64,000 nucleotides of DNA from an uncultured Alphaproteobacteria bacterium (GTDB taxonomy: Bacteria > Pseudomonadota > Alphaproteobacteria > HIMB59 > GCA-002718135), in assembly GCA_902602695.1 (NCBI GenBank), contig CACKRO010000001.1, positions 96,833 through 160,832 of the forward strand. Direction: 5' to 3'. The notes under the pieces are model-generated. The model saw nothing but the letters and a program-made list of their open reading frames with translations, searched no databases and was not told the origin of the DNA. Below, in pieces: positions 38,853 to 54,490 of this stretch. The position numbers were made by a program, and so were the translations under genes. Each line of letters opens with the position of its first letter. Positions within the stretch are counted from its first letter, which is position 1.

Positions 38853-39956
38853 ATGTCTAAATTTACAAAAGCCTTCTTATTCGCATCTATCATTTTTGCG
38901 CCTTTTGCAGCTAATGCTGTAACTGTTGCTTCATGGGGTGGTGCTTATACAGAAAGTCAAAAAAAAGCATATGCTGATACATATTCTGACCCAGGTTCAA
39001 TCGTTTTTGAAAACTATAACGGTGGTTTGGGTGAAACAAGAGCGCAAGTTGAAAGTGGAAACGTAACTTGGGACTTAGTTGATGTATTACCAGCTGATGC
39101 TATTACTGGTTGTGATGAAGGATTATTTGAAGATATTTCAAGTGAAATTGCATCAATGGGTGTACCAGGACCTGACGGAGAATCAATTGCCGAAGATATG
39201 GAAGCTAATGGTCTTAACTACCACTCTGGTTGGGATTGTTGTGTACCACAAATTTTTTGGACTTACGTAGTATTCTATGACCCAGATGCTTTCCCAGGAG
39301 AAAAACCTGATAGTATGGCTGACTTCTTTGACGTGGAAAAATTCCCAGGAAAAAGAGGTATCCACACTTGGGCTGATGGAATAATTCAAAAAGCTCTAGT
39401 TGCAGATGGAGTTGCTCCAAATGCAGTACCTACAGTTTTTGCAAATCAAACAGGTGCAATTGACAGAGCATTTGAAGTAATGGATAAAATTAAAGATCAT
39501 GTTGTATTCTGGTCTGCAGGTTCACAACCTCTTGAGTTAGTTAAAAGTGGTGAAGTTGTAATGGCTGTTGCTTATAATGGTCGTGTTGGTGCAGCTAACC
39601 TTGCTGAAGGAGAAAACTTTGAATATATTTGGGAAGGACAAGTTCTAGACCAAGAATATTTATGTTTAACAACTGGAGCTCCTAATAGAGAAGCAGCTCT
39701 TGATTTTATGATGCATGCATCTAGCCCTGCTTCGCAAGCTGAACAGGCAAAATATATTACTTACGGACCAATGAGAGCTTCTGGTATTCCTATCATTGAA
39801 GCAAATGAGCCTTGGGGTCCTGGAGGAGTAGATATTATGCCTCATATGCCTAACACTCCTGAGCGTCTAAAAGTCTCTATCGTTAATGATCCACAGTGGT
39901 GGTCAGATAATGGTGCAGAAATTAGCGAGCGTTATTCAGCGTGGATGGGTAACTAA
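38853..39956 (+). CDS. ABC transporter periplasmic substrate-binding protein (PotD/PotF-like family)
   Basis: 367 aa. Signal peptide MSKFTKAFLFASIIFAPFAANA. VASWGGAYTESQ pattern of the polyamine/opine-type SBP family. AGGAGG RBS. Distinct, less AT-rich codon usage. Confidence 0.82.
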   Translation: MSKFTKAFLFASIIFAPFAANAVTVASWGGAYTESQKKAYADTYSDPGSIVFENYNGGLGETRAQVESGNVTWDLVDVLPADAITGCDEGLFEDISSEIASMGVPGPDGESIAEDMEANGLNYHSGWDCCVPQIFWTYVVFYDPDAFPGEKPDSMADFFDVEKFPGKRGIHTWADGIIQKALVADGVAPNAVPTVFANQTGAIDRAFEVMDKIKDHVVFWSAGSQPLELVKSGEVVMAVAYNGRVGAANLAEGENFEYIWEGQVLDQEYLCLTTGAPNREAALDFMMHASSPASQAEQAKYITYGPMRASGIPIIEANEPWGPGGVDIMPHMPNTPERLKVSIVNDPQWWSDNGAEISERYSAWMGN

Positions 39957-43547: not shown

Positions 43548-44714
43548 ATGAAATTTGGATATTTTTGTAATACGACTAATTGGAAACATAAACCATTTAA
43601 TCAATTATTAGAAGAAGCAAGAGAAATATCAGCTTTTTGTGATGAAAATAATTGGGAATCAATTTGGTTTACAGAGCATCATTTCAATCATGAAGGCATG
43701 GAGTCTTGTACTAATCCTCTGATGATGGGAACAGATGTTGCCGCAAGAACAAAAAAAATAAAAATTGGACAAGCATGTAATGTAATAACTTTTCATAATC
43801 CTATCCGTCTAGCTGAAGATATAGCTTTTTTAGACCAATTATCTGAAGGCAGAGTAGAGGTTGGAATTGGAAGAGGTGTATACGGAAGAGAAGCAATAAA
43901 TATGAATAAAGAGGCCGATCTCAAAGATCAATCAAAAAACTTTAGACTATTTGAAGAGACATTAAGCATAATGAAAAAAGCTTGGACAGAAAAATTCTTT
44001 AATCACAAAGGAGAGTTTTACACTTATCCTGCACCAAACTTTAAATGGCAACATGATATGAGTCCGCCAAGTGAAGAGTTCTTGGACATAGATACTAATG
44101 AAGTAAAAAAAATTAGCATTGTCCCAAAACCATTTCAAAAACCTCATCCAGCAATCTGGCAAGTTGTTGATAGCCCCTCATCAATAGAGTGGGCAGCCGT
44201 AAATGGAATAAATACTATAATGTGGATACCTACAGTTAAAGCACTCAAGAAAAGATTTCTACTCTACAAGGAAGCAAAATCAAAAGCTGAAAACCGAGAA
44301 GTTCCTCTTGGAGAAGGCATCTGTCTTGTTAGAGATATGTTTATAGCTGATACAATGAAGGAAGCTGAAAAACTCGCTGGAGAACATATAGTAAATTATA
44401 TGCGTTGGGTTTGTCACTGGCGGGGTTTAGGCAATCATATGGACCCAGGTGAAATACTTCCAGAAACTGATCATAAATTAGATTTATTAAATTATGATTT
44501 TTTACATAAAAGAAATTTACTTTTTGGAACACCGGAATACGTTGTTAATAAAATTAATGAATTAAAATCAGAATTAAATCTACAAAATTTACAAGTTTGG
44601 TCAAACTTTCCAGGAATTGATCATGAAGCATGTATGAGAAGTATAAAATTATTTACAAATGAAGTAATGCCAAAAATTAAACTTGATGAATCAAATATTC
44701 AAATTGCCAGTTAA
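43548..44714 (+). CDS. LLM-class (luciferase-like) flavin-dependent monooxygenase
   Basis: 388 aa. N-terminal FGYF...WESIWFTEHHF and LSEGRVEVGIGRG motifs are typical of bacterial luciferase-like monooxygenases. Confidence 0.78.
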   Translation: MKFGYFCNTTNWKHKPFNQLLEEAREISAFCDENNWESIWFTEHHFNHEGMESCTNPLMMGTDVAARTKKIKIGQACNVITFHNPIRLAEDIAFLDQLSEGRVEVGIGRGVYGREAINMNKEADLKDQSKNFRLFEETLSIMKKAWTEKFFNHKGEFYTYPAPNFKWQHDMSPPSEEFLDIDTNEVKKISIVPKPFQKPHPAIWQVVDSPSSIEWAAVNGINTIMWIPTVKALKKRFLLYKEAKSKAENREVPLGEGICLVRDMFIADTMKEAEKLAGEHIVNYMRWVCHWRGLGNHMDPGEILPETDHKLDLLNYDFLHKRNLLFGTPEYVVNKINELKSELNLQNLQVWSNFPGIDHEACMRSIKLFTNEVMPKIKLDESNIQIAS

Positions 44715-44716
44715 TA

Positions 44717-45304
44717 ATGGAATTGAAGTTACGTAAATTTAATAAATTTGTAGATAAAACTTTCATAGAGGGAGGTAAAGAGGCAAAGGATCCAGTGCTT
44801 CTAGTTTCTGTAGCAGCAGTTTTTGAAAACCCATGGAAAGATATGGGATTTGTCGAAGATTTGAAACCTATAATTTTAGATCTTGCTCCTAAATTAGGAG
44901 CTATTCTTGTCCCAGAACTTATAAAAGAAATAGGCTCACCAGAAAAAATTTTAGCTTATGGGAAAGCAGGTATTGTAGGTTTAAATGGTGAAATTGAACA
45001 TGCTTCAGCTTTTATACATACTCTTCGGTTTGGTAACATTTTTAGAGATGCCGTAGGTGGAACTTCTTATTTAAGTTTTACTAATACTAGAGGTCCTGCT
45101 GGATCAAAAATTTCAATTCCTATGATGCACAAAACAGATGCTGGTTTAAGACCTTATTATTTAACACATGAATTTACAATTCACGATGCTCCATTTGATA
45201 ATGAAATTGTAATCGCTATTGGAGGAGCAACAACAGGTAGAGCTCATGCTAGGACTGGTGATAGATATCAAGATATGAAAGAAATGGGTATAGAGCCAAA
45301 ATAA
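44717..45304 (+). CDS. 'amino acid synthesis' family protein (PF06684/DUF1185-like), function unknown
   Basis: 195 aa. The pattern LRKF...VAAVFENPW...AYGKAGIVGLNGEIEHASAFIHT...GGATTGRAHARTGDR matches my recollection of the PF06684 family. Confidence 0.65.
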   Translation: MELKLRKFNKFVDKTFIEGGKEAKDPVLLVSVAAVFENPWKDMGFVEDLKPIILDLAPKLGAILVPELIKEIGSPEKILAYGKAGIVGLNGEIEHASAFIHTLRFGNIFRDAVGGTSYLSFTNTRGPAGSKISIPMMHKTDAGLRPYYLTHEFTIHDAPFDNEIVIAIGGATTGRAHARTGDRYQDMKEMGIEPK

Positions 45305-46087
45305 ATGTTAAAGAATTTTGATAAAAATCAAAATTATTATAAATTTTATAAAAGAAAAAATATTCCTATAGTTTTTATTCATGGTGTTGGTCTGGATCAT
45401 GAAATGTGGTTTCCTCAAATTAGATCTTTTAAAAACAATTCAATTTTAGTCTACGACTTATTAGGACATGGAAAAACACCACTAAATAAAAAAAGTGTTA
45501 ATTTTGAAGATTTTTCAAAACAATTAAATAATTTGTTAAATAATTTAAATATTAAAAAAATAAATCTTGTAGGTTTTTCATTTGGTTCTTTAGTTGCTCT
45601 AAATTTTGCAAAAAAATATCAAAAAAAAGTTAATAAATTAATTTTAATATCTACTGTTTTTAAAAGAGATAATTTGGAAAAATATAACGTCAGAGAAAGA
45701 TACAAAAAAGCAAAGAAAAATATACCAATATCTAATTTGGCTTTAAAAAGATGGTTAAGTCCTAAATTTATTAATAACAACCCAAAGATAAAAAAATATA
45801 TTTTAACTACTCTTAATAAAAAAAATAAAGATCATTTAAATTTTTTAAAATCATACAAACTATTTTCTTATTTCAAAGATAATACAAAAGAAATTAAAAA
45901 AATAAAAGTACCTTCTCTTGTTTTAACTGGTACAAAAGATCAAGGTTCTACAGTGAAAATGTCACAAAACTTATCAAAGGAACTTATTAACTCACAATTT
46001 TTTAAAATTACCAATGCTAAACACTTATGCAGTATTGAGTATTCCTCAAATGTAAATATAATTACTAAAAAATTTCTAAATACTTAA
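45305..46087 (+). CDS. alpha/beta-fold hydrolase
   Basis: 260 aa. HG oxyanion motif FIHGVG, nucleophile elbow GFSFGS, C-terminal NAKHL (His). Confidence 0.8.
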   Translation: MLKNFDKNQNYYKFYKRKNIPIVFIHGVGLDHEMWFPQIRSFKNNSILVYDLLGHGKTPLNKKSVNFEDFSKQLNNLLNNLNIKKINLVGFSFGSLVALNFAKKYQKKVNKLILISTVFKRDNLEKYNVRERYKKAKKNIPISNLALKRWLSPKFINNNPKIKKYILTTLNKKNKDHLNFLKSYKLFSYFKDNTKEIKKIKVPSLVLTGTKDQGSTVKMSQNLSKELINSQFFKITNAKHLCSIEYSSNVNIITKKFLNT

Positions 46088-46088
46088 T

Positions 46089-47564
46089 ATGATACAAGAA
46101 TATAAAATGTTCATTAACGGTGAATGGGTCAATTCATCATCTGATAAAAAAATAGAAACACTCAATCCAGAAAATAATGAAGTTTGGGCTTCTGTACCAG
46201 AAGCAAATGATCAAGATGTTGATTTTGCAGTACAAAGTGCACAAAAAGCTTTTGATAGTTCTTGGTCACAACTACACCCACGTGAAAGAGCTAAATATTT
46301 ACGATTAATAGCAAATGAATTACGAGAGAATGCTGAACATCTTGGTAAAATTGAAACTATTGATACAGGGAAGTTATTTCGTGAAACAAAGACACAAGCT
46401 AATTATATTGCAGAGTATTATGATTACTTTGCAGGACTTGCAGATAAAGTTGAGGGAACTGTTATACCTATTGATAAAGAAGATATGCAAGTTACAACTA
46501 CTAGAGTGCCAATAGGAGTAGTGGCTGCAATTATTCCTTGGAATTCTCAAATGCTTCTTACAGCTGTAAAATTGGCTCCAGCTCTAGCTATGGGAAATAC
46601 TGTTGTCATTAAAGCATCTGAATTAGCACCAGTTACACTATTAGAATTTGCTAAACTTATTGAAAAAACGGGAATGCCAAAAGGAGTTGTTAATATTATA
46701 ACCGGTCTAGGAGATCCTTGTGGCAAAGCATTAACACAACACCATTTAGTCGAAAGGATTGCTTTTACAGGTGGGCCTGAAACAGCAAGGCATATTGTAA
46801 AAAATTCATCATATAATTTATCTCAAGTAAGTCTAGAACTTGGAGGAAAAAGTCCAGTAGCAGTCTTTGATGATGCTGATCAAGAAAATGCACTTAATGG
46901 AATAACTGCAGGTATATTTGGTGCTAGTGGTCAGAGTTGTATTGCAGGATCAAGATTATATATTCAATCATCTATCTACGAGATATTTCTAAACAAACTA
47001 ATAGATAAAGCTAAAAAAATAAAATTAGGACCACCTATGTCAGATGAAACACAAATGGGACCTTTGAATAGTCTTAAACAGCTTGAAGTAATTGAAAAAA
47101 ATATAAATGATACTGTTCAACAAGGCGGAGTAATAAAGTGTGGTGGAAAAAGATCCTCTTTATCTAATAAAGGATATTATTTTCCTGCAACTATCATAGA
47201 ATGTGAAAATCATAATTTACCCACAGCAGAAAATGAATTGTTTGGCCCAGTTTTATCTGTGATGAAATTTGAAAAAGAAGATGAATTAGTAAACCTTATG
47301 AATGATAACAAGTATGGATTATCATCTGGTGTTTATACAAAAGATTTGGGAAGAGGAATGAGAATTTCAAAAGCAATTAGAGCTGGAATAGTTTTTGTAA
47401 ACACCTACCGTTTAATTTCTCCAATGGCACCATTTGGAGGTATGAAAGATAGTGGATATGGCAAAGAGGCAGGTCAAGAATCAATAAAAGAATATACCAG
47501 AGTAAAAACTACTTGGTTTAATGCTTCTCGAAAACCAATGAGTGATCCTTTTACTATGGGTTAA
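46089..47564 (+). CDS. NAD(P)-dependent aldehyde dehydrogenase
   Basis: 491 aa. IPWNSQ, ELGGKSP and GQSCIAGSR catalytic motifs. Confidence 0.88.
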   Translation: MIQEYKMFINGEWVNSSSDKKIETLNPENNEVWASVPEANDQDVDFAVQSAQKAFDSSWSQLHPRERAKYLRLIANELRENAEHLGKIETIDTGKLFRETKTQANYIAEYYDYFAGLADKVEGTVIPIDKEDMQVTTTRVPIGVVAAIIPWNSQMLLTAVKLAPALAMGNTVVIKASELAPVTLLEFAKLIEKTGMPKGVVNIITGLGDPCGKALTQHHLVERIAFTGGPETARHIVKNSSYNLSQVSLELGGKSPVAVFDDADQENALNGITAGIFGASGQSCIAGSRLYIQSSIYEIFLNKLIDKAKKIKLGPPMSDETQMGPLNSLKQLEVIEKNINDTVQQGGVIKCGGKRSSLSNKGYYFPATIIECENHNLPTAENELFGPVLSVMKFEKEDELVNLMNDNKYGLSSGVYTKDLGRGMRISKAIRAGIVFVNTYRLISPMAPFGGMKDSGYGKEAGQESIKEYTRVKTTWFNASRKPMSDPFTMG

Positions 47565-47569
47565 TATTA

Positions 47570-49003
47570 TTAGCTTAAGCTAATACCTACATTCTTAACT
47601 TGAAGATAAGATTTAAGTCCATCTACTCCTTTTTCACGGCTATATCCTGATTGTTTATAACCTCCAAAAGGTGTTGCATGATTTCCGGTGAACCATTTAT
47701 TTACATATACTTGACCAGCTTCTAATTTGCTTGCAGTCCAAGATGCTTTCTTAAGATCTTTAGTAAAAACTCCTGCACCCAATCCGTACTCAGTATCATT
47801 TGCAATATTTATGGCTTCCTCTTGATCTTCATATTCAAGAACTGAGAGTACTGGACCAAATATTTCTTCTCTGGCTACAGTCATATTTTGTTTAACATTG
47901 TTTAGAACAGTTGGTTCCATAAAATATCCTTCACGTTCTAATCTTTTTCCACCGTACGCTGCTTCTGCCCCTTCTTGAATTCCTGATCTTGCATAACCTT
48001 CAACTTTTTGTAGTTGATTTTCTGATATTACAGGAGTTAGGTCTGTATCTTTTTCTATACCAGGTCCAATTTTTAGAGATTTACTCATATCAACAAGCTT
48101 ATCTACTAACTCATCTTTAATTGACTTATGAACTACCAATCTAGACATCGCTGTACAAATTTGTCCTGCAACACTAAATATTCCTGAACGAGCACTTTCT
48201 AGAACTTCATTTAGATCAGCGTCAGGGTAAACAATACCAGCTGATTTACCTCCTAATTCAACTACAGCAGGAATAGCTTTATCAGCACAAGCATGAAGTA
48301 TTTTTTTTCCAGTAGCAACTGAGCCTGTAAATACTACATGATTTACATCTTCATGAGATACAAGATAAGATCCTGCTTCATTGCCATATCCACAAATTAT
48401 ATTGATTAATCCTTCTGGGACATCAGCATTTTGTATTGCTTTTGCAAAAATTGTTGCTGACAAAGGAGTTAATTCTGCAGTTTTAATGATTGTTGAATTT
48501 CCAGTGGCAAATGAACAAGATAGTGATCTTCCAATCATTGATAATGGAAAATTCCAAGGCACAACATGTGCAGATACACCAAAAGGTTCTAAAATTGTGT
48601 AATCAAAAACATTTTTTGCTACAGGTATTGTTTTACCTTCAAGTTTATCAGTTAAGCCAGCATAATAATCAAACATATCAGCTACATCATTGAACTCTTT
48701 AATTGCTGAAGCAATATTTTTTCCATTTTCATAACAAAGAAGCTCTCCTCCTTCTTTAGAAACTTTTCTTGTTTCTTCAGCAATCTTTCGCATAAGTTTT
48801 GCTCTCGAGAGTAAAGGCATATCTACCAGCACTCTGCTGTTATAAGAATTTTTAGCTGCTTCTACTGCAAGATCAACTTCATTTTTTTTTGCACATGAAA
48901 TTTCACCAATGATTTTACCATTTGATGGATCATCAACCTTTATTGTTTCCTTGGACTTACTTTCAATCCATTTATTATTTATAAAATTCTTATATTTTTC
49001 CAT
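47570..49003 (-). CDS. NAD(P)-dependent aldehyde dehydrogenase
   Basis: 477 aa. VPWNFP, ELGGKSA and GQICTAMSR motifs. Convergent with the previous ALDH, 5-nt gap. Confidence 0.88.
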   Translation of the reverse strand: MEKYKNFINNKWIESKSKETIKVDDPSNGKIIGEISCAKKNEVDLAVEAAKNSYNSRVLVDMPLLSRAKLMRKIAEETRKVSKEGGELLCYENGKNIASAIKEFNDVADMFDYYAGLTDKLEGKTIPVAKNVFDYTILEPFGVSAHVVPWNFPLSMIGRSLSCSFATGNSTIIKTAELTPLSATIFAKAIQNADVPEGLINIICGYGNEAGSYLVSHEDVNHVVFTGSVATGKKILHACADKAIPAVVELGGKSAGIVYPDADLNEVLESARSGIFSVAGQICTAMSRLVVHKSIKDELVDKLVDMSKSLKIGPGIEKDTDLTPVISENQLQKVEGYARSGIQEGAEAAYGGKRLEREGYFMEPTVLNNVKQNMTVAREEIFGPVLSVLEYEDQEEAINIANDTEYGLGAGVFTKDLKKASWTASKLEAGQVYVNKWFTGNHATPFGGYKQSGYSREKGVDGLKSYLQVKNVGISLS

Positions 49004-49087
49004 TTTCTGCGTTTTTTAATTAATTATTTTTGTTTCATTCTTTATCATTTAGGATATGAAAATGATACAAATTTAATTTTAAGAAAC

Positions 49088-50446
49088 ATGAGTATTACAT
49101 TCAATCAGTTAAAAAAATTAATAACAAAAAAAGAAATAGATACTGTTTTAGTTTGTGTATCAGATATGCAAGGTAGACTAAATGGTAAAAGAGTTACTGG
49201 AAAAGCCTTTATCGATTATGTTTATAAAGAAACACATATGTGTGACTATCTCTATACTGTTGATATGGACATGTTTACTGTACCTGGATACAAATCTTCT
49301 TCATGGGAAACTGGTTATGGAGATATGACTGTAATTCCAGACCTCAAAACCATAAAGATAGCCAATTGGTTAAATAAAACAGCCATAGTGCTATGTGATT
49401 GTTTAGACCATTCTGGAAAAAAACCACTTATTCATTCAACAAGACAAATATTAAAAGATGTTTTAGCTAAGGCCGACAAAATGGGATTTAAGTCTATGGT
49501 TGGTTCAGAATTAGAATTTTTTCTTTTCAATCAAACTTATGAAGAAATTCATAATAATAATTATACAAAATTTAAAGAATCTTCTTGGTATATTGAAGAT
49601 TACATGATTTTCCAAACTACTAAAGAAGAAGATGTGATGCAGGAATTAAGAAATTCCCTTCTAGATAGTGGAATTTACGTAGAATGTTCAAAAGGTGAGG
49701 CTGCTCCAGGGCAAGAAGAAATCAATGTTGTTTTTTCAGATGCATTAAACATGGCTGACAATCATATTTTAATTAAAAATGCTACAAAAGAAATTGCTTA
49801 TAAACATAACAAGGCTGTAACCTTTATGGCTAAATATAATAAAGAAGTTTGTGGAAGCTCATGTCATATTCATAACTCTTTATTTGATAAGAAAACAAAG
49901 AAAAATATTTTCTATAACCCTAAGGACAAATATGGAATGTCTGATATTTTTAAAAGTTATCTTGCAGGACAAATAAAATTATTACCAGATATTTCTATTT
50001 TTTTAGCACCAAATATTAATTCCTATAAAAGATTCCAAGATGGATCATTTGCTCCTACAAAGTCTGTTTGGGGAATTGATAATCGTACTGCTGGGTTTAG
50101 ACTAGCTGGTCATGAATCATCTATAAGGATTGAATGTCGAGTCCCAGGTGCAGATGTTAATCCCTATCTTTCTTTTGCCGCTTTAGTTGGTGCTGGTTTA
50201 TATGGAATTAAAAATAAACTTAAATTAGATAAGCCTTATTCAGGAAATATTTATGAGAAAAAAGTAAATGAAGTTCCTAAAACTCTTAATGAAGCAATTC
50301 AACTTGCTAAAAAATCTAAATTTTTAAATGAGATATTTCCACAAGATGTACTAGATCATTATATTCATGCCGCTGAATGGGAGCAAAAAGATTATGATGT
50401 TTCAGTTAATGATTGGCAATTACGAAGATACTTCGAAAGAGGCTAA
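49088..50446 (+). CDS. glutamine-synthetase-family gamma-glutamyl-amine ligase (PuuA/GmaS/GlnA4-like)
   Basis: 452 aa. GS beta-grasp N-domain (DTVLVCVSDMQGRLNGKRV) and catalytic domain (GSELEFFLF, GSSCHIHNSL, NRTAGFRL, ECRVPGADVNPY). Confidence 0.78.
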   Translation: MSITFNQLKKLITKKEIDTVLVCVSDMQGRLNGKRVTGKAFIDYVYKETHMCDYLYTVDMDMFTVPGYKSSSWETGYGDMTVIPDLKTIKIANWLNKTAIVLCDCLDHSGKKPLIHSTRQILKDVLAKADKMGFKSMVGSELEFFLFNQTYEEIHNNNYTKFKESSWYIEDYMIFQTTKEEDVMQELRNSLLDSGIYVECSKGEAAPGQEEINVVFSDALNMADNHILIKNATKEIAYKHNKAVTFMAKYNKEVCGSSCHIHNSLFDKKTKKNIFYNPKDKYGMSDIFKSYLAGQIKLLPDISIFLAPNINSYKRFQDGSFAPTKSVWGIDNRTAGFRLAGHESSIRIECRVPGADVNPYLSFAALVGAGLYGIKNKLKLDKPYSGNIYEKKVNEVPKTLNEAIQLAKKSKFLNEIFPQDVLDHYIHAAEWEQKDYDVSVNDWQLRRYFERG

Positions 50447-50455
50447 TTTTATTTC

Positions 50456-51832
50456 ATGTTTGAGACTATCACTCCAATAGACAACTCTGTCTTACTTAAA
50501 AGAGAATATGCAACAGAAGAAGATATTGAAACAAGTCTCAGCAATTCTTTTTCTGTTAGAAAACATTGGAAAAATATATCTCTAGAAGAGAGAAAAAAAT
50601 CAGTTTTAAATTTTGTAGAAATATTTTTAAAGAACAAGAATGTTTCTAGTAATTTATGTAAACAAATAGGTAGGCCAATAGCGCAGTGTCCAGGTGAGAT
50701 GCGAGGTTTTGAAGAAAGAGCTCGTTATATGATTAAAAATGCTGAAAGGGCATTATCAAGAGTAGTTTCAATCAAAAATGACGAATTTGATAATTACATA
50801 AAAAAAGAACCACTGGGAACTATATTCGTAATTGCGCCGTGGAATTACCCTTTCAACACTTCTGTTAATTCAATTGTACCAAGTTTACTTGCAGGTAATG
50901 CAGTTATATTAAAACATTCTTCTCAAACCCCACTCTGTGCTGAAGAATTAAATGAGGCAGCTAAACAATCTTCATTACCAAAAAATATTTTTCAGTATTT
51001 ACATTTAGATCATGATCAAACATCAAGAATTATTTCAGATTCAAGAATTAATCATGTTTTATTTACAGGTTCTGTAAGTGGAGGAAAACAAATAAAAAAA
51101 TCTATAGGCACCAGATTTATTGGAGCTGGTTTAGAGTTAGGTGGAAAAGATCCTGCTTATGTTAGAGCTGATTGTGACTTAGATCATGCTGTTGAAAATT
51201 TAGTCGATGGATCATATTTTAATTCTGGTCAATCTTGTTGTGGTATTGAAAGAATTTATGTTGATAAAAAAATATACAATACATTTGTAGAAAAATTTAA
51301 AGATGTAACTGAGAAATATATTTTAGGAAATCCACTAGAGATGGAAACAAATTTAGGTCCAGTAGTAAAGCAATCTGCTGCAAATAATATTAGATCTGAA
51401 GTTAACAACGCAATTAGTCAAGGTGGAAAAAACATTATAGATAACAAAAAATTTAACTTAGATGATGGTAATAATTGCTATGTAGGCCCAAGTGCACTCA
51501 TTAATGTCGATCATTCGATGAAATATATGATGGAAGAAATATTTGGCCCTTCGGTTGGAATAATGAAAGTAGAAAATGAAAATGAAGCTTTATCTTTAAT
51601 GAATGATAGCTCTTATGGATTAACAGCAAGTATTTGGACAAAAGATAAGTCTTTTGCAGAAAATTTTGGAAAAAATGTTGAGACAGGAACTTTTTTTATG
51701 AATAGATGTGATTACTTAGATCCTGGCTTAGCATGGACTGGTGTAAAAGATACGGGAATTGGCGTTACCTTATCTGTTTTAGGATTTGATCATTTAACAA
51801 GAGCTAAAAGTTATCATATAAGAAATATTTAA
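50456..51832 (+). CDS. NAD(P)-dependent aldehyde dehydrogenase
   Basis: 458 aa. APWNYPF, ELGGKDP and GQSCCGIER motifs. Confidence 0.88.
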   Translation: MFETITPIDNSVLLKREYATEEDIETSLSNSFSVRKHWKNISLEERKKSVLNFVEIFLKNKNVSSNLCKQIGRPIAQCPGEMRGFEERARYMIKNAERALSRVVSIKNDEFDNYIKKEPLGTIFVIAPWNYPFNTSVNSIVPSLLAGNAVILKHSSQTPLCAEELNEAAKQSSLPKNIFQYLHLDHDQTSRIISDSRINHVLFTGSVSGGKQIKKSIGTRFIGAGLELGGKDPAYVRADCDLDHAVENLVDGSYFNSGQSCCGIERIYVDKKIYNTFVEKFKDVTEKYILGNPLEMETNLGPVVKQSAANNIRSEVNNAISQGGKNIIDNKKFNLDDGNNCYVGPSALINVDHSMKYMMEEIFGPSVGIMKVENENEALSLMNDSSYGLTASIWTKDKSFAENFGKNVETGTFFMNRCDYLDPGLAWTGVKDTGIGVTLSVLGFDHLTRAKSYHIRNI

Positions 51833-51836
51833 GGTT

Positions 51837-52985
51837 ATGGAAAATATAAATTGGAATTATCCTACTACAATCTGGTTTGGTGTTGATAGAATAATAGAAA
51901 TACAAAAAGCCTGTGAAGAATTAAATATTCAAAAACCATTAATTGTTACTGATAATGGAATTTTAAAAACAAACATTATTAATAAGTTAAATGATTGTTT
52001 AGATAAACAGGCAATTATTTTTAGTGATGTTAAATCAAATCCTACAGGTAAGAATGTTGAAGATGGTGTTAAAGCATTTAATGAAAATAAACATGATGGA
52101 GTAATAGCTGTTGGGGGAGGCTCAGGTATGGATACTGGAAAGGCAATAGCATTTATGGCTAAACAAGAAAGACCAATCTGGGATTTTGAAGATATTGGTG
52201 ACTGGTGGACTAGAGCTAATACAGAATCAATTTTTCCTATAATTGCTCTACCTACTACTGCTGGAACAGGTTCTGAAACTGGCAGAGCATCAGTTTTTAC
52301 TAATGAAAAAACACAAGAAAAAAAAATTATTTTCCATCCAAAAATGCTTCCATCAATTGTTATCCTTGATCCAAATTTGACAATTCCACTCCCTGCAAAT
52401 TTAACAGCCTTTACGGGAATGGATGCACTAGCACATTGCTTAGAAGCATATTTATCGAATATTTTCCATCCGTATTCTCAAGGTATTGCATTAGAGGGAA
52501 TTAAATTAGTAAAAAATAATCTTGTTCTTGCTTTTAATGATGGATCAAATTTAGAAGCTAGATCGCATATGCTAGCATCTTCATCTATGGGCTCAATAGC
52601 TTTCCAAAAAGGTTTAGGTGCTATCCATTCTTTAAGCCATCCTGTTGGTGCAATTTATAATACTCATCATGGATTAACTAACGCAGTATTTATGCCATAT
52701 GTTTTACAATATAATAAAAAAGGCATTGAAGAAAAAATTATTGATATTTCAAGATATATAAATTTAAAAGTAGCAACATTTAATAATTTTATGGATTGGA
52801 TTTTAGAGCTTAGATCTAATTTAAATATTCCTCATACTTTAAGTGAAATAATTGATGACGATAAAAATTTAGAAAAAATGAGTTTAATGGCTTTTAACGA
52901 CCCCTCCACAAGTACAAATCCTATACCAGTTAATGCAGAAGATTTTTTAAAAATGTACATTAATGCCTTTAAAGGTGATTTATAA
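51837..52985 (+). CDS. iron-containing (group III) alcohol dehydrogenase
   Basis: 382 aa. GGGSGMDTGKA, PTTAGTGSE and the His cluster HCLEAY...HSLSHPVG. Confidence 0.88.
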   Translation: MENINWNYPTTIWFGVDRIIEIQKACEELNIQKPLIVTDNGILKTNIINKLNDCLDKQAIIFSDVKSNPTGKNVEDGVKAFNENKHDGVIAVGGGSGMDTGKAIAFMAKQERPIWDFEDIGDWWTRANTESIFPIIALPTTAGTGSETGRASVFTNEKTQEKKIIFHPKMLPSIVILDPNLTIPLPANLTAFTGMDALAHCLEAYLSNIFHPYSQGIALEGIKLVKNNLVLAFNDGSNLEARSHMLASSSMGSIAFQKGLGAIHSLSHPVGAIYNTHHGLTNAVFMPYVLQYNKKGIEEKIIDISRYINLKVATFNNFMDWILELRSNLNIPHTLSEIIDDDKNLEKMSLMAFNDPSTSTNPIPVNAEDFLKMYINAFKGDL

Positions 52986-52987
52986 AT

Positions 52988-54490
52988 CTATAGTGTTGCT
53001 CCAATTATCCAAGGATTAAATTCATCATCACCATAATCATTTATTTCACTCTTTGATTTTTCACCTGATGCAATTGAAACTATTTTATCAAATATTTCTT
53101 TACCAACCTCATTAACACTTGCAACGTTATCCATAATAGTACCAGCATTGATGTCCATATCTTCACTAAGTTTATTATACATATTCGTATTTGTTGCTAT
53201 TTTAATACTTGGAGTGGGTTTAAATCCAAAGCATGAACCTCGACCAGTAGTAAAACAAATAACATTAGCGCCAGAAGCAACTTGACCAGTCACAGACACA
53301 GGGTAGTAACCTGGAGAATTCATAAAGTTCAAACCTTTGGTTTTTACCTGTTCAGCGTAATCAAGGACATCAACCATATTTCTATTACCAGCTTTGGATA
53401 CTGCGCCTAATGATTTTTCAAGAATTGTAGTTAAGCCTCCTTTTTTATTACCAGGACTTGGATTATTATCTAATGTGCTATCGTTGCTAGCAACATATTC
53501 TTTCCACCATTCAATTTGTTTGTTTAGTTTTTCTATATTTTTTTCGTTTGATGATTTTTCAAATAATAAATGTTCTGCTCCATATATTTCTGGAGTTTCT
53601 GATAGTAATGTTGTTCCTCCATGATCAATAATCATATCTGAAGCAATACCTAGTGCAGGATTTGCAGTTATCCCAGAATACGAATCTGAACCACCACATT
53701 GCAAAGCAACTGTAAGTTTTGAAACAGGAATATTTGTCCTGTAAATGCTATTAATTTGATTAAGTTGATTAAGAATTTTTGAAGTTACTTTCGTTATAAT
53801 TTCATTTGTTCCACCTTCATCTTGAATATTTAAATATTCAATATTTCTTTTTTCCTGATCATTATTATACAAACTTATTTGGGCACATTCGCATCCTAGT
53901 CCGATAACAAAAACTTTTCCAAAGTTTGGATGAATTTTAAAACCTTCAATAGTTCTGTTAAACACATTCATAGCGTATCCAGAAGTATTCATCCCACAAC
54001 CTGATGAATGTTTTAAACAAACCGCTCCATCAATATTTTCAAAATTATTATCTTTTAAATAATTATTTATTTTATCTGATATTTTTTTAACAACAGTTGC
54101 AGAACAATTAACTGTACTAATTAAACCTATATAATTTCTAGTGCCTGATGATCCATTATTTCTTTTGAAACCTTTAAAGTATTCTGTTTTTTCATTTTTA
54201 ATAATATGATTTTTAAAGTTTTTACGAGTATATTCTCTTTTGAAATCACTATATCCCATATTATGTGAATGCACATGTTCACCAGGTTCTATATTTTGAT
54301 TAGATATTCCAATTATTTGTCCATACTTAAAAATAAAATCACCACTTTTAATTTTTTTTAAAGAGATTTTATGACCATAAGGAATATTGTTAATTGATCT
54401 AATTCCATAGTTTATATAAATATTTTGAGGAATATCCATTGGAGCAATTCCAATATTATCTTTTTCATTTAATTTGATTATGTTAAACAT
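52988..54490 (-). CDS. UxaA-family sugar-acid dehydratase (altronate/galactarate dehydratase-like)
   Basis: 500 aa. N-terminal SAF domain (NDNIGIA...G..I.KYGQIIG) and a C-terminal dehydratase domain with a Cys-rich region (CSATV, GLGCECAQ). Confidence 0.8.
   Translation of the reverse strand: MFNIIKLNEKDNIGIAPMDIPQNIYINYGIRSINNIPYGHKISLKKIKSGDFIFKYGQIIGISNQNIEPGEHVHSHNMGYSDFKREYTRKNFKNHIIKNEKTEYFKGFKRNNGSSGTRNYIGLISTVNCSATVVKKISDKINNYLKDNNFENIDGAVCLKHSSGCGMNTSGYAMNVFNRTIEGFKIHPNFGKVFVIGLGCECAQISLYNNDQEKRNIEYLNIQDEGGTNEIITKVTSKILNQLNQINSIYRTNIPVSKLTVALQCGGSDSYSGITANPALGIASDMIIDHGGTTLLSETPEIYGAEHLLFEKSSNEKNIEKLNKQIEWWKEYVASNDSTLDNNPSPGNKKGGLTTILEKSLGAVSKAGNRNMVDVLDYAEQVKTKGLNFMNSPGYYPVSVTGQVASGANVICFTTGRGSCFGFKPTPSIKIATNTNMYNKLSEDMDINAGTIMDNVASVNEVGKEIFDKIVSIASGEKSKSEINDYGDDEFNPWIIGATL

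Follow-up and report, generated by a model that had tools for sequence, protein, structure and literature searches.

The 64,000-nucleotide stretch of DNA analysed here (hereafter the window; contig CACKRO010000001.1, positions 96,833 to 160,832, of assembly GCA_902602695.1) comes from an uncultured alphaproteobacterium of the HIMB59 order, a lineage also designated AEGEAN-169 and formerly known as SAR11 subclade V. It carries a compact three-gene unit, or triad, encoding a glutamine synthetase (GS)-like ligase, an aldehyde dehydrogenase (ALDH), and an iron-type alcohol dehydrogenase (Fe-ADH). The ligase gene (49088-50446, plus strand) codes for a 452-residue protein with a Pfam Gln-synt_C match (E 6.5e-99) and is predicted to specify an ethanolamine gamma-glutamylase (glutamate--ethanolamine ligase). 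It is followed after 9 nt by the ALDH gene (50456-51832, plus strand; 458 residues; Pfam Aldedh, E 9e-113), a predicted gamma-glutamyl-aminoacetaldehyde dehydrogenase, and then after 4 nt by the Fe-ADH gene (51837-52985, plus strand; 382 residues; Fe-ADH, E 2.5e-48, and ADH_Fe_C, E 4.6e-39), a predicted gamma-glutamylethanolamide dehydrogenase whose stop codon lies 2 nt from that of a convergent UxaA-type dehydratase gene. Upstream of the triad, a second ALDH gene of the aminoaldehyde/betaine-aldehyde dehydrogenase type (ALDHdiv; 47570-49003, minus strand; 477 residues; Pfam Aldedh, E 4e-159) is transcribed divergently, and the 84-nt AT-rich intergenic region between them (49004-49087) presumably contains the promoter of the triad. 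This region has the same sequence in a relative, G079, and an alignment of leaders proved AT-rich only. An Rfam scan of 47000-53500 yielded zero matches at E values up to 1, and a promoter and terminator scan returned fewer matches in the real sequence than in shuffled versions. An earlier, sequence-only reading of the window had placed the four genes and their spacers at these coordinates, and the list of open reading frames (ORFs) and the Pfam matches agree with it in every detail; the GS-like/ALDH/Fe-ADH unit is a real operon.

As none of the three triad proteins reaches the cutoff of a curated NCBIfam equivalog model, family models alone give them no name. The ligase falls under all such cutoffs, with 242 bits against 429 for GlnA (TIGR00653), 218 against 470 for the type III/GmaS-type model (TIGR03105), and 181 against 650 for the gamma-glutamylputrescine synthetase/PuuA-type model (NF045547). 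The best NCBIfam match of the ALDH is succinic semialdehyde dehydrogenase (293 bits, cutoff 521) and that of the Fe-ADH is 4-hydroxybutyrate dehydrogenase (345 bits, cutoff 500). In a search of the PDB with the ligase, two entries stood far ahead, 11zs (E 2e-153) and 5dm3 (E 1.4e-135), at 456-514 bits; the next match reached 187 bits, and the GmaS structures 9qur and 7cql scored 125 and 96 bits. According to titles retrieved through a fold search, 5dm3 holds Csal_0679, a "glutamine synthetase" from Chromohalobacter salexigens and an EFI target, and 11zs is its homologue from Brucella melitensis.

A maximum-likelihood tree places the window ligase within an 18-row clade (support 100/98, stem 1.55) composed of triad-linked enzymes only, including those of Phaeobacter and Agrobacterium. 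The window ligase is 48% identical to the Phaeobacter and 53% identical to the Agrobacterium locus enzyme (48-55% across the triad-linked clade overall), compared with 29% for both PuuA and GlnA of Escherichia coli. In the same tree, E. coli PuuA pairs with another GS-like paralogue of this genome, encoded on contig 18 (99/96), and E. coli GlnA pairs with a gene on contig 4 (100/100), which is the bona fide glnA of this genome; for S. coelicolor GlnA4, GlnA2-4, IpuC, and GmaS, which are not among the rows of the tree, the PDB and NCBIfam scores stand in. The sequence-only reading had proposed a phylogeny as one check, and its assignment survives this comparison, as the ligase stands apart from both PuuA and GlnA and scores far lower against GmaS. 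An identification as PuuA was rejected on model score, identity, and position outside the PuuA clade; one as GlnA on model score, an active-site substitution described below, and the presence of glnA on contig C4; and one as GmaS on model score and on the 96-125 bits of the GmaS structures as opposed to the 456-514 bits of the Csal_0679 clade. The genome holds two more GS-like paralogues, the PuuA-like one at C18:13242-14228 and another at C11:2129-3100, and the latter groups weakly with a paralogue that adjoins the only FGase-family genes of the order (in genomes G001 and G009).

The active site of the ligase is intact. Equivalents of E129, E131, E212, E220, H269, E357, R321, R339, R344, and R359 are all kept, and we take the aligned positions, from what is known of enterobacterial GS, to comprise six metal ligands, the ATP- and glutamate-binding Arg and His residues, the flap residue E327, and N264. 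Throughout the clade, Phe takes the place of the flap Glu327 (Phe321 in the window ligase), and the N264 equivalent is Cys in the window ligase and Cys, Ala, Val, or Gly across the clade. To judge from the alignment, one would anticipate such a pattern in a gamma-glutamyl-amine ligase but not in a glutamine synthetase.

The two dehydrogenases tell the same story. The triad ALDH is 44% identical to its Phaeobacter and 48% identical to its Agrobacterium counterpart (44-50% when the cluster ALDH of a further locus, L011, is included), 59% identical to cluster ALDHs of marine relatives, and only 29% identical to E. coli PuuC and 26-28% identical to the two remaining ALDHs of the window. The Fe-ADH is 52% and 53% identical to the Phaeobacter and Agrobacterium cluster ADHs, respectively, and by tblastn is the sole homologue of these cluster ADHs in the assembly. 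Both dehydrogenases are co-orthologous with the Phaeobacter and Agrobacterium pathway enzymes. The association of the three genes extends well beyond the Alphaproteobacteria. A scan of named genomes recovered 80 loci with this ligase, and neighbouring genes were counted within 8 kb of the ligase at 81 loci of other phyla and classes. The orthologous ALDH was a neighbour at 65 of these and the orthologous Fe-ADH likewise at 65, followed by an FGase-family hydrolase (60), an RpiR regulator (53), the ethanolamine-binding protein EtoX (34), and an amino-acid permease (11); GGT and C26 peptidase genes were found once each. The linkage of ligase, ALDH, and Fe-ADH is far beyond chance. In one 5.7-Mb genome (L011, 1-14426), an ALDH-GS-ADH triad lies beside glycerophosphodiester phosphodiesterase, glycerol kinase, and GlpD-like genes, a glycerophosphoethanolamine-type neighbourhood, and is followed by a GGT gene whose product carries a signal peptide.

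Enzymes of this kind have been described in several bacteria. In Phaeobacter MED193, the Eto cluster (MED193_10021-10056) codes for an RpiR regulator, a gamma-glutamylglycine amidohydrolase, the TRAP transporter EtoVWX, an ethanolamine gamma-glutamylase (MED193_10046), a gamma-glutamylacetaldehyde dehydrogenase, and a gamma-glutamylethanolamide dehydrogenase; the catabolic genes follow the order ligase-ALDH-ADH, and the cluster is induced on phosphoethanolamine (Westermann et al. 2023, Sci Adv, PMC10132767). The protein families of the pathway are PF00120, PF00465, PF00171, and PF05013 (Table 2, PMC9397018), and the Streptomyces coelicolor equivalents are SCO1613 (GlnA4), SCO1611, SCO1612, and SCO1615 (PMC9397018; PMC6529630). 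An ethanolamine pathway is also ascribed to the Csal_0678/0679 region of C. salexigens and to Agrobacterium tumefaciens C58 (Vetting et al. 2015, Biochemistry 54:909, as cited in PMC10132767 and PMC9397018), and Csal_0678, a TRAP solute-binding protein (SBP) adjoining Csal_0679, was crystallised with ethanolamine (4UAB; PMC12410723). The Phaeobacter locus examined here, RpiR(-) | FGase-DctQ-DctM-DctP-GS-ALDH-ADH, matches the published layout, and the Agrobacterium locus reads FGase-permease-GS-ALDH-ADH. A search of the literature on 5DM3 and 8JV1 found nothing relevant, and the AEGEAN-169 paper does not mention ethanolamine.

Set against these systems, the window locus is a stripped-down version of a familiar theme. 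It shares with the Phaeobacter MED193 cluster the same three families in the same order and a ligase of one clade, both organisms being marine Alphaproteobacteria, and the likeness extends to sister genomes of the window strain that carry an EtoX orthologue; in contrast to MED193, the window locus and assembly are without the PF05013 amidohydrolase and EtoVWX, and no RpiR gene lies beside the triad. The likeness to C. salexigens and Agrobacterium consists of the ligase match to Csal_0679, the shared families PF00120, PF00465, and PF00171, and the GS-ALDH-ADH order of Agrobacterium, but the window locus has no counterpart to the PF05013 hydrolase of those clusters or to their transporter, which is of the TRAP type or an amino-acid permease. 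The S. coelicolor SCO1610-1615 region (Krysenko et al. 2019, mBio, PMC6529630) also combines a ligase (GlnA4, compared by description), a dehydrogenase (SCO1611), and an ALDH (SCO1612), and in both species an ethanolamine permease is absent from the cluster (PMC6529630); its FGase-family hydrolase SCO1615, however, is absent from the window genome. The E. coli Puu route (PuuA/B/C/D) employs the same strategy of gamma-glutamylating an amine, oxidising it, and hydrolysing the product, but its ligase belongs to another clade, it uses the oxidase PuuB and not an ADH, and its substrate is a diamine. By these sequence comparisons the triad is orthologous to the published ethanolamine gamma-glutamylation pathway; the pathway itself is already known.

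It is therefore probable that the operon supplies the enzymes for the opening three steps of this route. The GS-like ligase would join the gamma-carboxyl group of glutamate to the amine of ethanolamine at the expense of ATP, a modification that would protect the amine and avoid the formation of free aminoacetaldehyde. The Fe-ADH would then oxidise the alcohol of gamma-glutamylethanolamide to the aldehyde, and the ALDH would convert the aldehyde to gamma-glutamylglycine, from which glycine and glutamate would be freed by a hydrolase encoded away from the locus and not of the PF05013 family. The sequence-only reading had sketched the same route for amino-alcohols in general, from ligase through ADH and ALDH to a gamma-glutamyl amino acid, with ethanolamine yielding glycine, and the orthology of the triad to the published pathway now supports it.

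How the window locus came to differ from the better-known clusters can be read from its relatives. Across a sample of 187 species of the order (two families; genomes of ~1.0-1.6 Mb, one of them closed), the ligase gene is present in 114: besides the window genome, it occurs in 63 of the 104 other species of the genus, in none of the 11 genomes from other genera of the same family, and in 50 of the 71 species of the second family. Comparison of the same site in eight genomes revealed four architectures. Type A reads ALDHdiv(-) | DctQMP(EtoX)-GS | SDR(-) | ALDH-ADH, such that the EtoVWX TRAP genes sit where the window has its 84-nt intergenic region, with the ligase gene immediately preceded by an EtoX orthologue. 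Type B, represented by the window, G079, and G012, consists of GS-ALDH-ADH and has neither the TRAP genes nor the SDR gene; the gene upstream is ALDHdiv(-) in the window and G079 and codes for an ABC-type SBP in G012. Type C (L137 of G057 and L143 of G063) retains TRAP-SDR(-)-ALDH-ADH without the ligase, which is absent from these genomes both at the locus and genome-wide (cut-off E 1e-100), and type D, from another genus, carries TRAP-SDR-ALDHdiv only.

Within the genus, and with this genome included, 14 genomes have both ligase and EtoX, 50 have the ligase only, and 13 have EtoX only. EtoX proteins of the genus share 89-94% identity with that of L012, which matches 4uab at E 1.5e-133, and the sister genomes with an adjacent EtoX carry ligases 85-91% identical to the window ligase; ligases at least 95% identical to it all belong to the transporter-less type. 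No EtoX-like protein was found in the window assembly, whose only TRAP SBP is unrelated (20% identical), and the absence of the transporter is not an assembly gap, since it is seen on contiguous loci. The window strain has lost an EtoX transporter that is still present in sister genomes. With EtoVWX and the SDR both absent from the window site, the substrate would have to be taken up by a different transporter or be produced within the cell. Two signs of decay were encountered elsewhere in these genomes: the G122 ligase gene (C1:393625-394971) contains an in-frame TAG, and an EtoX fragment in G005 (C1:12476-12820) contains five TAA stops.

The absence of the ethanolamine-specific EtoX from the window strain also invites the view that the same chemistry serves one or more other short amino-alcohols, for example aminopropanols, alaninol, or serinol, which would yield alanine, beta-alanine, or serine derivatives. 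The ligase is just 48-55% identical to clade members from characterised organisms, a different ABC-type SBP is encoded directly upstream of the triad in G012, and the PDB holds a second entry, 4xf5, with a sequence identical to Csal_0678, whose ligand is presumably an aminopropanol. Such a shift in substrate is nonetheless unlikely, as EtoX sits next to the closely similar ligases of the sister genomes and the pocket-related positions examined are identical across the clade.

Other observations weigh against assigning the triad to the ethanolamine route at all. The genes leave the pathway open at either end: PF05013 was not found in this genome (74% complete), EtoX is missing, and no RpiR gene (HTH_6/SIS) was detected among the twenty ORFs neighbouring the triad. 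The best NCBIfam models of the Fe-ADH and ALDH, 4-hydroxybutyrate dehydrogenase and succinic semialdehyde dehydrogenase, name enzymes of a different reaction sequence, albeit below cutoff in both cases, and type C loci keep the TRAP, SDR, ALDH, and ADH genes without the ligase, which suggests that ADH and ALDH may serve a purpose that does not involve the ligase. From these points one could construct a route in which the two act on substrates free of a glutamyl group, for example an amino-alcohol or 4-hydroxybutyrate on its way through succinate semialdehyde to succinate, with the ligase as a mere neighbour. Yet the three genes occur together at 65 of the 81 loci across phyla, mostly with an FGase gene, 9 and 4 nt separate them in the window, and phosphoethanolamine induces their Phaeobacter orthologues together (PMC10132767), all of which makes this construction very improbable.

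At the downstream end of the ethanolamine route, the sequence-only reading had noted that the window holds no C26 hydrolase, which the Pfam search bears out, and had taken a C26 enzyme as the one to seek; the canonical hydrolase of the pathway belongs instead to PF05013, the FGase family. PF05013 is absent from 114 of the 116 genomes of the family and from 185 of the 187 of the order, including all 22 of high quality; among the genomes that lack it is G116, a closed, 99%-complete genome in which the ligase is present. The only two positive genomes of the order, G001 and G009, carry the gene beside a different GS paralogue (26% identity). With the canonical enzyme absent order-wide while the ligase is conserved, the last step would be carried out by some other enzyme. 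The genome-wide hydrolase search that had been suggested accordingly ended in an absence, that of PF05013, and in two unlinked candidates. The first is the genome's only GGT (C13:31245-32834), which lacks a signal peptide, has the Thr nucleophile aligned, and scores 349 bits against a GGT-model cutoff of 358; the missing signal peptide sets it apart from the classical periplasmic GGTs and from the L011 GGT, to which it is 26% identical. The second is a PuuD-like C26 peptidase on contig C2 (C2:124575-125270), the only strong C26 match in the genome, with the motif GICGG around the expected Cys and an HPE motif; it is 26% identical to PuuD, scores 92 bits against a cutoff of 266, and adjoins RNA-modification genes. 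Perhaps one of these, the GGT without signal peptide or the PuuD-like peptidase, stands in for the last step. Both are core genes, GGT being present in 91 and C26 in 90 of the 116 family genomes, so co-occurrence can neither tell them apart nor link either one specifically to the triad.

Three further candidates for this step were considered and set aside. An M81/MlrC-like gene (C5:9798-11285) has no counterpart near this ligase clade in 146 loci, and no GGACT cyclotransferase was found in this genome. The third, a 348-residue protein encoded after the ADH in types A and C, resembles by eye an aldo-keto reductase rather than a hydrolase and probably belongs to the neighbouring sugar module. 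Its gene (L138, 13690-14736; also L137, L139, and L143) separates the ADH gene from that of the UxaA-type dehydratase and is absent in the window.

Loss of accessory genes on this scale raises the possibility that the triad itself is a non-functional remnant, decaying after the loss of transporter, regulator, and hydrolase. Such a fate would be in keeping with the absence of EtoX, SDR, RpiR, and FGase, with the patchy occurrence of the ligase among the species of the genus, and with the interrupted G122 gene. Comparison of transporter-less genomes, however, gave dN/dS values of 0.025-0.04 (ligase), 0.04-0.05 (ALDH), and 0.09-0.10 (ADH) and zero internal stops; values for ALDHdiv and the L138 ALDH, out of register through guessed coordinates or an indel, were left out. 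The triad is under purifying selection. Contigs from seawater RNA libraries (three studies, four runs) cover all three genes, and one spans the ligase/ALDH junction; as assembled contigs, they show presence in RNA libraries rather than a single transcript or a level, and so give weak support to expression. Taken with the intact frames and the catalytic residues kept in the ligase, these data make a decaying remnant extremely improbable.

The genes upstream of the triad bear on one other interpretation. A DAO-type oxidase gene (42144) and a polyamine-type, PotABCD-like ABC importer are found upstream, in synteny across the genus, and the importer SBP matches 8jv1, a spermidine/putrescine-binding protein, at E 5e-70; together with the triad these could be viewed as a Puu-like system for gamma-glutamylation of putrescine, a role for the DAO enzyme that the sequence-only reading had entertained. 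The DAO gene is not linked to the triad, though, and stays with the importer in every architecture. Moreover, the PuuA-like ligase of this genome is the C18 paralogue and not the triad enzyme, which falls outside the PuuA clade, the triad ALDH has little identity with PuuC, and the Puu route has no ADH step, which together render a Puu-like function highly improbable. In G079 (L140, 6015-8728), the DAO gene abuts ALDHdiv directly, by comparison with which the four-gene LLM/AA_synth/hydrolase/ALDH cassette that intervenes in the window (43548-47564) looks like an insertion peculiar to this strain. ABC-type SBPs in the window (38853-39956) and in L144 (10005-11138) match the periplasmic protein of 8jv1 (four entries, E ~1e-68 to 1e-70), and it is an SBP of this kind that precedes the triad in G012.

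ALDHdiv is present and divergent, as had been reported, but is not a member of the conserved triad, with only 27-30% identity to the triad ALDHs. Its best NCBIfam matches are BADH and aminobutyraldehyde dehydrogenase, all below cutoff. It is nonetheless a constant neighbour at this site, in synteny across architectures A, B, and C, and lies beside the TRAP genes without the triad in type D. One possibility is that it may serve a direct route composed of the SDR and an ALDH. Elsewhere in this genome, an SHMT gene is present, and a short SerA-like gene adjoins a SerC-like aminotransferase gene (C34:13-1579; in G079, C3:31148-33152; in G116, C1:1099055-1101045), both below cutoffs. Such a pair points to a possible phosphoserine pathway, a capacity that would speak against glycine/serine auxotrophy of the lineage, whereas the sequence-only reading had presumed a glycine-dependent organism.

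These results extend a known pathway to a very abundant, streamlined marine lineage, in which the ligase gene is found in 114 of 187 species. What is unusual is the order-wide absence of the canonical hydrolase together with the lack of the transporter in the window strain, which also has no regulator gene at the locus; the understanding of the pathway itself is unchanged. Two gaps are thereby exposed, namely the enzyme that releases glycine where the canonical hydrolase is missing and the source of the substrate in strains without EtoX, and the within-genus series of locus variants constitutes a natural experiment for both. In the ocean, where EtoX is abundant and strongly expressed, ethanolamine from phospholipid turnover is presumed to be a steady source of nitrogen and carbon (PMC10132767). 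It is tempting to speculate that the whole order runs an ethanolamine route with a non-orthologous last enzyme (the signal-less GGT or the C26 peptidase), and that its transporter-less strains use the triad mainly to recycle ethanolamine derived from their own phosphatidylethanolamine, e.g. during lipid remodelling under phosphate stress, in place of scavenging it from seawater, a combined scenario that is tentative and, taken as a whole, doubtful. If the predicted route operates, ethanolamine would provide a further source of glycine for the organism.

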